Of a stretch of DNA of 24,000 nt, positions 9,268 to 15,843 are shown one piece after another. The stretch comes from Candidatus Micrarchaeota archaeon (lineage in GTDB: Archaea; Micrarchaeota; Micrarchaeia; Micrarchaeales; Micrarchaeaceae). The stretch lies in NCBI GenBank assembly GCA_964592765.1, contig CAZQGC010000004.1:25233-49232 (forward strand), written 5' to 3'. How positions within the stretch are numbered: position 1 is the stretch's first letter; each line of letters starts with the position of its first letter. The notes beneath the pieces were generated by a model. It did not search any database. It had not been told where the DNA came from and was given only the letters and a program-made list of their open reading frames with translations. The translations under genes were made by a program, and so were the position numbers.

Positions 9268-9357
9268 ACTATCACTCTGTGTGTAAAGATAATCTACGGT
9301 TAGGAATAATAACCTTTACAACATTATACTGCGTATTACACTGCGCAGTTGGTAATA

Positions 9358-9960
9358 ATGAAGAAGGACAAAAAGGGGATAATCCTGTTCATAGGATCCA
9401 TTTTCGTTGCCGCCATGTTCCTATCAAGCATGCTGGTGGGCGGTGGTGGCCCACCGCCAAGCTCGTCTTCAAAGCCTAATGCGAGTCTGAACGTGAGTAC
9501 ATTCTTTGGCACTGGGACGGCGAACGCGATAGTGGTAGGGTATGGGAGCTCAGTTGCTATAACGCTGCTCAATTCCACATACGAAAATTCAACGAACGAG
9601 TTCCTCGCGGGCCTCGAGGCGAACAACACGATAAGCACGTACAATCAGTTCAACAATACCTTTAGGGTTTCCCTGCAGTCTATAAGCGGATACGAGTTGC
9701 AGAGGGAGCTATCGGCAAAGCTTCGTCCCGGCGCGTTCCAGATGAGCGCCGCGGAATACGTGCTCCTTCCCGGGCAGGCCACACTGCACATAGGCGGTCA
9801 GGCAATCACCACCTATCTCGGCTCCGGACAGCGGAAAGTCACCGTGCTTAACCTTACTCCGATAAATTCAACCGTGCCGGTATATCTGAATGCGATAGTT
9901 GCCTTTCAGAATGGCACCTACTCCGTGTACAATAACAATATTACGCTCAAGGCCAGGTGA
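9358..9960 (+). CDS. Membrane-anchored extracellular protein, N-glycosylation-sequon rich (hypothetical)
   Basis: The ATG at 9358 gives MKKDKKGIILFIGSIFVAAMFLSSMLVGGGGPPPSSSS. This is a basic N-terminus, one TM helix and a Gly/Pro/Ser linker. I count 10 N-x-S/T sequons in ~200 aa. The track start at 9349 is TTG. Confidence 0.6.
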   Translation: MKKDKKGIILFIGSIFVAAMFLSSMLVGGGGPPPSSSSKPNASLNVSTFFGTGTANAIVVGYGSSVAITLLNSTYENSTNEFLAGLEANNTISTYNQFNNTFRVSLQSISGYELQRELSAKLRPGAFQMSAAEYVLLPGQATLHIGGQAITTYLGSGQRKVTVLNLTPINSTVPVYLNAIVAFQNGTYSVYNNNITLKAR

Positions 9961-9997: not shown

Positions 9998-11209
9998 ATG
10001 CCGGATGAAGAGATAGCTGCTGTGGCGCGCAAGCATGCGATACGAAATGCCCTTGAATATGGGCAGGCGCAGCCAGGTCCAGTGCTTAACAAAGTCTTCT
10101 CTGAGATACCCTCTGCAAAGGAGGATGTAAAGCATGTCGTGGAAATAATCGGGAAAGTGGTCCGTGAAGTCAACTCGATGGCAAAGGCGCAGGTAGAGGA
10201 AGAGTTTTCGCGATACGAGTTCCCCGAGAAGGCCGAACGGCACGGCCTGCCCGAACTCCCCTGGGTAGTGCCTGGCACGAAGGTCAATACGAGGTTTGCA
10301 CCAAATCCGAGTGGTTTCCTCCACATCGGCCATTCGAAGGTGATGATACTTTCAGACGAGTATTCGAAGAAGTATTGCGGTAGCTTCTATGTGCGATTCG
10401 AGGATACCGATCCAAAAGGCAAAAAGCCGATACCCGAAGCCTATAATATGACAATAAAGGACATAGAGTGGCTAGGTTGCAGTATTGCAGCCGTGATAAA
10501 ACAGAGCGAGAGAATGTCCCTCTACTACGCGTTCGCCGAGCGGCTTATAAGAGAGGGAAAAGCATACGTCTGCACGTGTGCGAAAGAGGTTCTCCAGGAG
10601 AATCGCAGGAAGGGCATCGCATGCCAGTGCCGCGGGCGTTCCTCTATTGATGATTGGAAAAAGATGCACGATGGCGGTTTCTCTGAGGCGAGTGCGGTGC
10701 TTAGGCTGAAGACGGACATGAAGCATCCGAATCCATCTGTTAGGGACTGGGTGCTCTTCAGGATAATCGACGAGGCGCATCCGCTGACTGGCACCAGATA
10801 CCGGGTCTGGCCCCTATATAATTTTGCTGCAGTGATTGACGATCACGAGATGGGCATCAATCTCGTAATAAGGGGAAAGGAGCACGAGATAAATGCTGTG
10901 AAGCAGGGCATGCTGTTTGGTGCATTCTCCTGGGAGATGCCCCACATAATAGAGGTTGGGACGCTCAAGGTGCACGGGGAGCTGGCGCATAAGTCCGATA
11001 TACGCAACGCAATAAAGGCCGGGACGCTGAGCGGATGGGATGACCCGAGGGCTCCTACAATAATGGCCTTCAGGAAGAAGGGCATCGACCCGAGGGCGAT
11101 AAGAACCTACATAATAAGCTCCGGCATAGGGAAAAGCGATTCTTACCTTGACATAAAGAAGCTCGAATCCTTCGATAGGAAGATAAAGAAAGATCCAAAT
11201 GATGCGTGA
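9998..11209 (+). CDS. gltX: Glutamyl-tRNA synthetase-like protein: archaeal N-terminal region plus catalytic domain only, no anticodon-binding domain
   Basis: The 403-aa ORF has TRFAPNPSGFLHIGHSK, with the HIGH motif at aa 109-112. It also has YVRFEDTDP, AYVCTCAKEV...CQCRGRS, WPLYNFAAVIDDHEMGINLVIRGKEH and SGWDDPRAPTIMAFRKKGIDPRAIR. All are characteristic of archaeal/eukaryotic-type GluRS. The protein ends ...LESFDRKIKKDPNDA*, where canonical ~550-570-aa enzymes continue into the beta-barrel anticodon-binding domains. Confidence 0.8.
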   Translation: MPDEEIAAVARKHAIRNALEYGQAQPGPVLNKVFSEIPSAKEDVKHVVEIIGKVVREVNSMAKAQVEEEFSRYEFPEKAERHGLPELPWVVPGTKVNTRFAPNPSGFLHIGHSKVMILSDEYSKKYCGSFYVRFEDTDPKGKKPIPEAYNMTIKDIEWLGCSIAAVIKQSERMSLYYAFAERLIREGKAYVCTCAKEVLQENRRKGIACQCRGRSSIDDWKKMHDGGFSEASAVLRLKTDMKHPNPSVRDWVLFRIIDEAHPLTGTRYRVWPLYNFAAVIDDHEMGINLVIRGKEHEINAVKQGMLFGAFSWEMPHIIEVGTLKVHGELAHKSDIRNAIKAGTLSGWDDPRAPTIMAFRKKGIDPRAIRTYIISSGIGKSDSYLDIKKLESFDRKIKKDPNDA

Positions 11210-11231: not shown

Positions 11232-12065
11232 TCATATCTCCTTTGCTGCGTGTATGTCCTTCAAAAGCGCGGTCAGCCTCACACTGTTAGAATACTTGCC
11301 GAATATGGCGGCGACCTTTTCCGCTTCCGAGAGCCGACCGAGCTTAAACAACGAGAATGAGATATAATACATGGCATTCACAGAGGGTGTGCGCTGCAGT
11401 GCAATCTGGCCGGCGACACGCATCGCGTAATCATACCTGCCAAGGGCAGTGTCAAGCACCATGCCGGCGTATGTGGCAAGTGCCGGCGCCCCTGACCTAT
11501 TTACGCTGTTAAAATCAGAGTATGCCTGCCTCAGTTTTCCAAGCTTCACATTGCACAGCAGTGAGACATAATAGTCCTCCGCGGCCGGCAATTCCCCCGG
11601 CCTATTCTTGGCCATAAAGATTGCCTTATTGAAGAAAAGCCTTGCCTGCGTATAGAGCTCTATGGATCTCAGCCTGTGCCTCGCATTTTCTTCCATGAAC
11701 CCCGCGAGGTCGTACCTGACCAGCGAAAGCTCATAATTTGAATACATTATGTAATTGAGCCCATTTACGTATAGGTTGGCAGGGCTTCCGTTCGTGGTTA
11801 GGGCCTTTTCATACTCTTTTACCGCCCCGTCGAAATCCTGTCGGGAGAGCTTCGTAATATACGCGTCGAGTACCCCAGCAAGCTCTGGGTTGTCTGCGGG
11901 CTCATCGCGCGTTGACTCGACAACATTTTCGCAATTCTGGCAGAATGCGGAGCCCCTCCCTGCCCTATGCACCGGTGTAGCCGCACCGCAGTGGCTGCAC
12001 ACCACGTGTGTCTCGGAAGCAAACGCCTCAGCGAATGCCTTCCTATAAACAGAGATCCTTGCCAT
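11232..12065 (-). CDS. Zinc-ribbon plus helical-repeat (TPR-like) protein, hypothetical
   Basis: The 277-aa ORF has an N-terminal CSHCGAATPVHRAGRGSAFCQNC (C-x2-C-x15-C-x2-C). The rest is helical, with repeated A/Y/L-rich pairs such as YEKALTTNG, LYTQARLFFNKAIFMA, YAGMVLDTALGRYDYAMRVAG and YYISFSLFKLGRLSEAEKVA. Confidence 0.55.
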   Translation of the reverse strand: MARISVYRKAFAEAFASETHVVCSHCGAATPVHRAGRGSAFCQNCENVVESTRDEPADNPELAGVLDAYITKLSRQDFDGAVKEYEKALTTNGSPANLYVNGLNYIMYSNYELSLVRYDLAGFMEENARHRLRSIELYTQARLFFNKAIFMAKNRPGELPAAEDYYVSLLCNVKLGKLRQAYSDFNSVNRSGAPALATYAGMVLDTALGRYDYAMRVAGQIALQRTPSVNAMYYISFSLFKLGRLSEAEKVAAIFGKYSNSVRLTALLKDIHAAKEI

Positions 12066-13770: not shown

Positions 13771-15843
13771 TTATTCGACCTCACGCTTCACGATCTTGAT
13801 GATTCCGGGGCGCGGCGAGAATATGTCGCCGCTTCTTTCCAGTTCCTGAATGTACTTGTTTGCCGTGTCTGCGTTCATTCCTGCCTTCTCCGCCTCCTCT
13901 ATTACCCTCTGCATCCTGCAGGTGCCTTCCCCCTCCTCTAATTTTCTCACTATGGAGAGCACAACATTTAGTTTGTCGACCTTCTCCCTGGGCATGCCCG
14001 TGAGTATCGTGTCTATATCGCGCCTGCCGCCGCTGTCAACGGCCAGCGTTTTTAGCATGAATTCGCTCAGCATTATCGCGCGCTCCGCATCCATCACCTC
14101 GACAATCTCCGAAAGCCTGGTCTTTGCGCTCGCCTCCGCCATCCTAACAAGGCCCTCTATCTGCCTCGGGGTTATCGGAACAGCGCCATGCTTCGTGCCA
14201 CTCCTCCTCAAATCAACATAATAATCCTCTATCTTCTGCATTGCCTCGTCCGACAGCCTAGGCTGTACGCTCTTCTTGGCATATGCGATGTACTTGCGCA
14301 GCAGTTCCCCCTCTATCGGTGGCAGTTCGACCTGCTTGTAGCCTTCGATATCGGCTATCTTCGCCCCTGCCGCCTCATGCTGCAAAAGGATATGCTTTGC
14401 AATCTCTTTGTCTTGGGTCTCGTCGAGCACGTCTTTTATTGGGAATATGAGGTCAAATCTGGAAAGGAGTGTCGGTGGTATGTTGAACTGCTCTGCAGGG
14501 TACATCGACGTGTCGAACCTGCCGAATTTTGGGTTTGCGGCAGCCAATACCGCGGTCTTCGCGTTGAACGTAGCGATTATGCCCGCTTTGGCAACGCTTA
14601 TTGTCTGCGATTCTAGCGCTTCATGGAGTGCGGCACGGTCCTCCTCCCCCACCTTGTCAAATTCGTCTATGCAGACAATTCCACCACTTCCCAAAACGAG
14701 CGCCCCTGCCTTGAGTGTCCACCCCCCATCAGAAAAGTCATCCCGCTCCGCAACGGCCGTCATTCCCCCTCCCGTTATCGACTTGCCGCTTACGTATATG
14801 CCCTTTGGCACGAGTTTTGATACCGACTGCAGCACTCTGGTCTTTGCGCTTCCCGGGTCTCCTATCAGGAGTATGTGCATGTCGCTTCTTATTAGGCCCC
14901 CGTCGACCAGGAGTTTCCCCGGTGTGCCGCCGAAGAGCTGCAGGGCGACTGCCTGCTTTATCTCGGTATGGCCGTATATGGAAGGTGCCATCGAGGCAGT
15001 TATCTTGTTGAATATCTCAGGGTCTCTTGCAAGCTCCTTGATCTTCCTCTCCTCCTCTTCGTTTATGTACAGTTCGGCAAACTCCTTCTGCTTCGGAACT
15101 AGCGAAACGGTGTCCAAAAACATCGTGTACAGGTTTTTCTCAAGCTTCCCGCGGGCGTTCCTTCGCGGCCGTATCCGCAGCATCCCGGTTACGTCGACTC
15201 TATCCCCAGGTATGACTGTGTTGACCAAATCGTCCTCTATCCAGACCTCAAGTTGCCATGTCGGGCTGTTGCCTTTGAGCCTCTCCAAGGGGTCCTGGAC
15301 CGCGATTTTCTGCAGGTTTATGAATTTCGATTCCTCTGGAACCTCCTTTATCGAGCGCCGCTTGCACTGTGTGCATATCTCCGGAATCTCGTCCTTGTCC
15401 GTCCTAGCTTTGTAGACCGACCCGCAGTACGTGCACCGGTATGTACCAATCTTTATTTTTGGGTTTATCTCCGATCTCTTGACTATCAGGCCATCTAAGA
15501 GTATAAGTTTTCCGATATACTTTGAGCCCACGTCCTGCACAAGCGGAGTGTTTACGCTCTGGCCAAAAAACCTTACGTGCAGCTCGCGCTCCTCGGTCTG
15601 CGCGAAGCCCATCCTGTCCCTTAGGGATTCCGTAGCGGCCTCTATAATCAGGTCTGGACTATCTATCAATTCGTTAGCGAGATCCGGGTCGAATCCTTCG
15701 AGGTCCTTGAAGTCAACGTTGAGGCTCGCTCTCTCCGGGTATGCCACTGTGAGTGCCTCTATGCTTTCCCTGTAATGCCTGTCGAAGAACTCGTCAAACT
15801 TCACCTTCAGCCCCTCGGTTATAGGATCTGCCATAAGAAGCAC
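13771..15843 (-). CDS. mcm: MCM replicative helicase
   Basis: The 690-aa ORF has an N-terminal domain zinc finger CTYCGSVYKARTDKDEIPEICTQCKRRS. It has Walker A ILLIGDPGSAKT, Walker B CIDEFDK, and the arginine-finger region SRFDLIF. A C-terminal winged-helix-like tail follows, and there is no intein. The track start at 15843 is GTG; an ATG is at 15834. TTTTATAA at 15864..15871 (minus strand) is a TATA candidate. Confidence 0.93.
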   Translation of the reverse strand: MLLMADPITEGLKVKFDEFFDRHYRESIEALTVAYPERASLNVDFKDLEGFDPDLANELIDSPDLIIEAATESLRDRMGFAQTEERELHVRFFGQSVNTPLVQDVGSKYIGKLILLDGLIVKRSEINPKIKIGTYRCTYCGSVYKARTDKDEIPEICTQCKRRSIKEVPEESKFINLQKIAVQDPLERLKGNSPTWQLEVWIEDDLVNTVIPGDRVDVTGMLRIRPRRNARGKLEKNLYTMFLDTVSLVPKQKEFAELYINEEEERKIKELARDPEIFNKITASMAPSIYGHTEIKQAVALQLFGGTPGKLLVDGGLIRSDMHILLIGDPGSAKTRVLQSVSKLVPKGIYVSGKSITGGGMTAVAERDDFSDGGWTLKAGALVLGSGGIVCIDEFDKVGEEDRAALHEALESQTISVAKAGIIATFNAKTAVLAAANPKFGRFDTSMYPAEQFNIPPTLLSRFDLIFPIKDVLDETQDKEIAKHILLQHEAAGAKIADIEGYKQVELPPIEGELLRKYIAYAKKSVQPRLSDEAMQKIEDYYVDLRRSGTKHGAVPITPRQIEGLVRMAEASAKTRLSEIVEVMDAERAIMLSEFMLKTLAVDSGGRRDIDTILTGMPREKVDKLNVVLSIVRKLEEGEGTCRMQRVIEEAEKAGMNADTANKYIQELERSGDIFSPRPGIIKIVKREVE

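Follow-up and report, generated by a model that had tools for sequence, protein, structure and literature searches.

The 24,000-nucleotide stretch of Candidatus Micrarchaeota archaeon DNA analysed here (the window; positions 25,233 to 49,232 of contig CAZQGC010000004.1, assembly GCA_964592765.1) carries an archaeal-type glutamyl-tRNA synthetase (GluRS) that has its N-terminal extension and its catalytic core but no anticodon-binding domain (ABD). The open reading frame (ORF) at 9998..11209 (+) begins with ATG, ends with TGA at 11207-11209 and encodes 403 aa. The gene is intact, conserved, under purifying selection and present in a single copy, and no ABD is detectable with it. The protein is probably the single housekeeping, non-discriminating GluRS of its cell, and one that works without an ABD.

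The protein was compared with profile models and with the GluRS of M. thermautotrophicus (PDB 3AII). Pfam recognises PF00749 alone, at aa 95-395 (E 2.4e-69). The NCBIfam model for archaeal GluRS, NF003169, is covered over profile positions 3-405 of 567 with 474.5 bits against a cut-off of 516, and TIGR00463 over positions 6-396 of 560 with 384.6 bits against 401.75; the protein falls below these curated whole-protein cut-offs because some 160 C-terminal profile positions are missing. It aligns with residues 8-398 of 3AII, whose domains are YQEY (1-85), Rossmann (86-170 and 288-331), connective peptide (CP) insertion (171-287), stem-contact fold (354-399), proximal beta-barrel (400-408 and 500-552) and distal beta-barrel (409-499) (PMC2978374). 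Since the alignment ends at residue 398 and the barrel begins at 400, the truncation point is a true domain boundary. The two C-terminal beta-barrel anticodon-binding domains (PF03950, PF20974) are found neither in the protein nor at its locus: read-through past the TGA meets another stop after 26 unrelated codons, and a convergent gene ends 22 nt downstream of the GluRS stop. The parts of the gene, all on the forward strand, are as follows.

9998..11209 (+): ABD-less archaeal-type glutamyl-tRNA synthetase ('T form'), complete gene including the TGA; from the ORF list, PF00749, NF003169, the 3AII alignment and an AlphaFold2 (AF2) model.
9998..10252 (+): N-terminal YqeY-like helical domain, aa 1-85; from alignment to the 3AII N-terminus and the AF2 helices.
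10322..10333 (+): HIGH signature H109-I-G-H112 in the Rossmann fold; H109 is nearly invariant and G111 invariant.
10571..10630 (+): zinc knuckle C192-T-C194 ... C209-Q-C211 in the CP insertion domain; aligned with the four 3AII cysteines.
10985..10999 (+): KMSKS-equivalent loop A330-H-K332-S333-D; K332 and S333 are nearly invariant.
11033..11191 (+): final domain, the stem-contact fold (aa 346-398); from alignment to 3AII residues 354-399.
11207..11209 (+): TGA stop, 5 residues past the end of the stem-contact fold; from the ORF list and read-through.

An earlier reading of this DNA from its letters and ORFs (the sequence-only reading) had described a GluRS with the N-terminal extension and catalytic core kept, ending where the ABD should begin, with read-through soon blocked. 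Alignment to 3AII, the archaeal comparison it had suggested, bears this out, and the motifs it listed (HIGH, the cysteines, DDH..RGKEH, SGWDDPR) lie where it had put them: SGWDDPR at aa 345-351, and the DDH..RGKEH block as D281-D282-H283 ... R292-G-K-E-H296. Among 51 homologues R99, D282 and R292 are invariant and correspond to the Glu-binding residues R100, D282 and R292 of 3AII; C192 and C194 are likewise invariant, and C209 and C211 nearly so. The 3AII structure holds one bound zinc ion (PMC2978374). In the YqeY-like domain N17 and G22 are invariant and K12, A24, K32, E36 and P38 nearly invariant in the same 51 sequences; searched by itself, this domain gave no significant Pfam match. The AF2 model (predicted local distance difference test score, pLDDT, 94.5) has four helices in the N-domain, at 3-21, 26-36, 38-59 and 63-70, and its last helix at 386-398. 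Its best fold match is 3AII, with a root-mean-square deviation of 1.9 A and 43% identity over 316 Foldseek columns. One suspicion of the sequence-only reading did not hold, namely that the KMSKS loop (GELAHKS) was altered. The loop ELAHKSD has counterparts in the full-length GluRSs of Micrarchaeota sisters (MAHKSDI, SHKSEI), and the LSKSK of Thermococci aligns with it, the K-S pair being kept. Because full-length sisters have this loop too, it is a lineage trait unlinked to the truncation and no sign of changed function.

We searched for an ABD encoded apart from the gene. The source genome (G000, the source assembly) is a 92% complete metagenome-assembled genome (MAG) of 831 kb in 31 contigs. 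PF03950 and PF20974 had no match in it; control genomes gave matches. Two lineage-specific ABD hidden Markov models (HMMs), one made from the barrels of local relatives and the other from those of sister clades, reached best E values of 1.8 and 9.3 against its six-frame ORFs. As a positive control, the sister-clade model detects the ABDs of the divergent full-length local enzymes described below as type B at 1e-32 to 1e-38. In nine other genomes with the short form (carriers G001, G018, G021, G023, G053, G059, G145, G225 and G158, one of them 97% complete in 8 contigs), the two Pfam models found nothing above cut-off. A weak match in G018 (E 0.08, a 229-aa ORF) was rejected, as it reads as ribosomal protein S4e. 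A split gene, which the sequence-only reading had offered as an alternative, was rejected on these results, there being no separate ABD-like ORF in G000 by Pfam and both custom HMMs or, by Pfam, in the nine other carriers.

The same searches bear on a wider possibility, that a housekeeping short GluRS has its tRNA or anticodon recognition supplied in trans, by a diverged split C-terminal half or by a non-homologous cofactor resembling Arc1p or Trbp111. Split and trans-complemented synthetases are known, among them the split AlaRS of Nanoarchaeum and the yeast GluRS and MetRS with Arc1p, and according to the title of Dubois et al. 2009 (Biochemistry 48:6012, as cited in PMC4393105) a C-truncated E. 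coli GluRS is stimulated by the free distal domain. Candidates are also at hand, since G000 has a protein with a PF01588 tRNA-binding domain fused to a DHH/DHHA1 protein, and a gene with zinc-ribbon and tetratricopeptide repeat (TPR) features is a conserved neighbour of GluRS in the family, with a homologue adjoining short or full-length GluRS in 104 of 121 genomes. Neither tracks the truncation, however. The zinc-ribbon/TPR gene adjoins full-length GluRS genes too, and was rejected both as a truncation-specific partner and as the scar of a deletion; the Trbp111-like protein was rejected as a partner because it occurs in carriers and non-carriers alike. Moreover, the short gene of a second family, f15, has wholly different neighbours. 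With no ABD-like ORF found either, we regard recognition in trans as unlikely.

The gene is also the sole GluRS of its genome. PF00749, which covers bacterial-type GluRS and GlnRS too, has one match in G000, the GluRS itself; the second full-length gltX that the sequence-only reading had proposed to look for did not turn up. Our family sample comprised 121 genomes, 114 of them with a GluRS and 17 with the short form, and in 16 of the 17 the short form is unaccompanied by any other GluRS, the 97% complete genome in 8 contigs among them. G000 encodes tRNA-Glu(UUC), tRNA-Glu(CUC) and tRNA-Gln(UUG). GatE and GatD adjoin each other on the same contig, about 17 kb upstream of the window; GatDE serves the indirect route by which archaea make Gln-tRNA-Gln, a route that begins with a non-discriminating GluRS. 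The two tRNA-Glu and the tRNA-Gln have in common C9, a GUCU/GGAC D-stem (with U11:A24 and U13.G22) and a short variable region, a combination present in no other tRNA detected in G000.

ARAGORN predicted 26 tRNAs in G000, or 35 with introns allowed, and tRNA-Asp, tRNA-Tyr and tRNA-Trp were not among them. Several of the predictions have long inserts. Either part of the tRNA set is missing from the assembly, or the set abounds in unusual introns.

ABD-less relatives of synthetases can have non-canonical roles: YadB, the bacterial GluQRS, needs no tRNA to activate Glu, which it attaches to queuosine-34 of tRNA-Asp (PMC9437257). The sequence-only reading had drawn this analogy, and like GluQRS/YadB (TIGR03838; PDB 1NZJ) the 403-aa protein is a GluRS catalytic core without an ABD. 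The likeness does not extend far. YadB has a bacterial-type core of ~300 aa, lacks the YqeY domain and exists alongside a normal GluRS, whereas here the core is of archaeal type and the protein is the sole GluRS-type gene product, with no extra paralogue. Against TIGR03838 it scores 92.8 bits, far under the cut-off of 276.7, and archaeal GluRS models score 4-5 times higher. It might nonetheless be argued that the protein is a non-translational, GluQRS-like paralogue with another substrate, Glu-tRNA being supplied by an unassembled gene or by the host of an episymbiont; DPANN archaea do rely on hosts for many functions, and the protein does fall under the NCBIfam whole-protein cut-offs. We consider this very unlikely. 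No other GluRS-type gene accompanies the short one in 16 of 17 carriers, and it occupies the exact slot of its relatives' canonical gene. Its Glu-binding residues are kept, as are tRNA-Glu, tRNA-Gln and GatDE, and against the archaeal GluRS profile its catalytic domain outscores the local full-length enzymes over their whole length. Queuosine, the target of GluQRS, is not known as a modification of archaeal tRNA.

Conservation of the short form was assessed by database search, which returned ~25 clusters of 396-413 aa that share 55-65% identity with the query and, without exception, stop at the same domain boundary. They derive from ENA, JGI, NCBI and Logan assemblies, in addition to the 17 family genomes and family f15. 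The tails past the boundary vary in sequence and not in position. In a tree of the shared region, 30 short sequences are monophyletic with a support of 99 in the Shimodaira-Hasegawa-like approximate likelihood ratio test (SH-aLRT). Pairwise identity within the short clade, domain by domain, is the same as in full-length clades of comparable depth, and the ratio of nonsynonymous to synonymous substitution rates (dN/dS) for three close orthologues is 0.05-0.07; both refute relaxed selection. Substitutions fixed specifically in the short clade fall mostly in the stem-contact fold (A357G, L/V/I375S, K378G, P379K and I/N388K) and replace hydrophobic or other residues with Ser, Gly or Lys, the pattern expected of a former domain interface now turned towards solvent or RNA.

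An artefact or a recent pseudogene, whether through the sequencing error or the truncation that the sequence-only reading had considered or through a rearrangement that deleted the C-terminus at the junction, might be suspected in a MAG with the stop just 22 nt from a convergent gene, but the idea is hardly credible given the same end point across so many independent assemblies with differing tails, the clade of 30 sequences, the low dN/dS and the fact that the convergent neighbour also abuts the full-length GluRS genes of relatives, while a single mis-assembled template as common source is excluded because the short sequences are 55-65% mutually identical.

We next placed the short form among its relatives, whose taxon names were taken from homologue annotations; carriers were placed by genus codes and by MCM identity to G000 rather than on a species tree. 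The majority of relatives, including three species of the same genus, have a full-length (~570-580 aa) divergent GluRS, which we call type B. It shares 32-41% identity with the query and stands on a long branch of its own. The short form is nearer to canonical archaeal GluRS than type B is, and in a tree of 151 sequences the Micrarchaeota short clade (support 100) is nested among full-length GluRSs of other Micrarchaeota. The number of residues that follow the stem-contact fold declines stepwise from canonical enzymes to the short form.

Thermococci and relatives: 165-168 residues.
Full-length Micrarchaeota sisters: 145-161 residues.
The ~525-aa clade, no longer recognised by Pfam: 124-126 residues.
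Short form: 2-10 residues.

The ~525-aa enzymes belong to the nearest sister clade (P0026-P0028, P0030, P0040; L031 6485-8068 in G045), whose GluRSs of 524-527 aa have a ~44-column deletion in the distal barrel and are no longer matched by PF03950 or PF20974. This clade may represent an intermediate stage of ABD erosion. The short form probably arose once, within a Micrarchaeota GluRS lineage in which the ABD was already shrinking. As for other short GluRSs, two further 'short' representatives in the tree are fragments of roughly 550-aa proteins. The other genuine ones, P0266 and P0191, fall in a different clade, which also holds P0166, the 90% cluster of which includes a Woesearchaeota-named member of 554 aa. 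The separate clades rule out a common origin with the Micrarchaeota short form; since these lineages are placed elsewhere in the tree, the loss of the ABD in Micrarchaeota is independent, and the same truncation boundary has, on the evidence of the tree, been reached independently at least twice.

Type B is present in most genomes of the family and of its sister family (loci L004-L013, L015, L019 and L026). It reads RSKEYE where the short form has RGKEH, its KMSKS loop contains ITSKRK, and it branches outside the other Micrarchaeota GluRSs.

Short and full-length genes occupy the same chromosomal slot. In genus g1 the order is an rpoE'-like gene, FKBP, a sequon-rich membrane protein, GluRS, (zinc-ribbon/TPR), fibrillarin, rpl21e and TBP; it is common to carriers G000 and G001 and to non-carriers G002 and G004, the zinc-ribbon/TPR gene being absent in the latter two. 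In G002 and G004, with a full-length GluRS, and in G001 and G023, with a short one, the gene immediately before GluRS encodes a homologue of the membrane protein. The short gene and type B share a slot in genus g18 too; in g15 the neighbours are shared and the gene is inverted. The two forms are mixed within genera, the short form accounting for 2 of 5 in g1, 3 of 5 in g15, 4 of 6 in g18 and 1 of 2 in g41; in g20 and g40 no other form was seen. One genus of f15, a family of another order, has the short form too, among unrelated neighbours. MCM identity to G000 is 80% for carrier G001 and 65-72% for the remaining carrier genera, while several genera with type B only stand at 77-78%. For the short GluRS itself, identity to the query varies little, at 59-65%. 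The scatter of carriers and the flat GluRS identity suggest that descent was not purely vertical and that the forms have been exchanged at a conserved locus.

Bin G399 holds both forms. A short GluRS opens one contig (L025, C21, 3-1220), and at the end of another (L024, C28, 3604-4137) lies the N-terminus of a type-B GluRS with an in-frame stop, immediately preceded by the gene for the conserved membrane protein. Either a replacement has been caught under way, or two strains were binned together and broke the assembly at the locus.

How could such an enzyme select its substrates? We infer its activity, its anticodon-independent recognition and the roles of its YqeY domain and of the tRNA D-arm. 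The YqeY-like domain, Rossmann core, CP insertion and stem-contact fold would together engage the tRNA at its acceptor arm and inner corner (D-arm). The short GluRS would glutamylate tRNA-Glu(UUC, CUC) as well as tRNA-Gln(UUG), and GatDE would then turn Glu-tRNA-Gln into Gln-tRNA-Gln. Specificity could come from C9, the GUCU/GGAC D-stem with U11:A24 and U13.G22, and the short variable region. 'Augmented D-helix' elements are major identity determinants of E. coli GluRS, and the stem-contact fold faces the D-helix part of the tRNA; a C-truncated E. coli GluRS is reportedly still specific for tRNA-Glu, to judge by the title of Dubois et al. 2009. The YqeY domain would contribute tRNA affinity in cis, and the new lysines of the stem-contact fold may add to it. 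In D. radiodurans GlnRS a YqeY domain is a cis enhancer of tRNA affinity (PMC1865053), and the loop through which GlnRS links its ABD with the active site is missing from archaeal non-discriminating GluRS (PMC2978374).

Several points weigh against charging by a GluRS that works without any ABD. A very divergent or non-homologous trans partner may escape profile searches, and G000 is a 92%-complete MAG. The D-arm features were compared within G000 alone, and as such would speak for feasibility and not for adaptation. tRNA-Asp, the near-cognate competitor, was not found in G000 by ARAGORN and hence stands outside that comparison. Finally, anticodon binding in GlnRS is allosterically coupled to catalysis, and from this coupling full loss of the ABD is expected to cost much activity.

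Set beside known systems, the short form resembles the archaeal non-discriminating GluRS represented by 3AII in its YqeY N-domain, its Rossmann fold with HIGH, its zinc-binding CP insertion, its Glu-binding Arg/Asp/Arg and its stem-contact fold, and also in its context, the indirect Gln pathway with GatDE. It differs in the absence of the proximal and distal beta-barrels, about 150 of roughly 553 residues, and with them the equivalents of the proposed readers of U35 (Arg403, Gln530, Arg533) and C34 (Asp462) (PMC2978374). Like the engineered, C-truncated E. coli GluRS (Dubois 2009, title only), it has lost the distal, anticodon-binding part of a synthetase. That construct was made in the laboratory, was stimulated by the free distal domain and derives from an enzyme with an alpha-helical ABD, as in bacteria generally, unrelated to the beta-barrel ABD of archaeal and eukaryal GluRS (PMC2978374); the truncation described here, in contrast, occurs in nature, where it has become fixed and is subject to purifying selection, and a free distal domain was not detected. 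Full-text searches of the literature on GluRS with DPANN or Micrarchaeota, and on truncated or ABD-less forms, yielded no description of such an enzyme.

GluRS and GlnRS are a textbook case of the anticodon as a major identity element. The bacterial and the archaeal/eukaryal ABDs being unrelated, there is a long-standing idea that the ancestral GluRS had none. Our most far-reaching interpretation, which we offer tentatively as somewhat short of an even call, is that these Micrarchaeota maintain Glu and Gln codon assignments without a protein reading the anticodon at charging. The core, stem-contact fold and YqeY domain would select tRNAs by acceptor-arm and D-arm shape, and the short enzyme would have the fitness to take turns with full-length GluRS at one locus in several genera and, probably, to supplant it there time and again, as a living counterpart of the hypothesised ABD-less proto-GluRS. 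A natural, essential GluRS without an ABD makes the idea of an ABD-less ancestor directly testable by an ordinary charging assay. Such an enzyme could show specificity carried by the acceptor arm and D-arm alone, and could show whether the YqeY domain offsets the lost binding energy and how tRNA-Asp is rejected. The alternation of the short form with a full-length enzyme in one slot shows that symbionts with reduced genomes can exchange one architecture for another in core parts of translation. On the practical side, short GluRS genes fall under curated cut-offs and may be mis-called partial in annotation.

The GluRS gene is flanked in the window by two genes, the first of which has homologues that mark the conserved GluRS slot.

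9349..9960 (+): gene for a sequon-rich membrane-anchored protein, upstream of GluRS.
11232..12065 (-): convergent zinc-ribbon/TPR-like gene; from weak TPR and zinc-ribbon Pfam matches.

The zinc-ribbon/TPR gene is absent from three same-genus species with type-B GluRS. The only PF01588 (Trbp111-like) domain in G000 lies outside the window, at the C-terminus of a 466-aa frame (C13:8259-9656, -) that has DHH/DHHA1 phosphoesterase motifs (GGGGH); in four relatives the PF01588-bearing frame is far shorter, at 115-175 aa. Further along the window is an MCM gene, at 13771-15843 (-). In three relatives (G003:C35, G024:C1 and G157:C12) the MCM match comes in two pieces, ~aa 4-400 and 390-690, within a single frame of ~1065-1086 aa, which suggests that their MCM carries an intein-like insertion of ~380 aa, absent from the MCM of G000.

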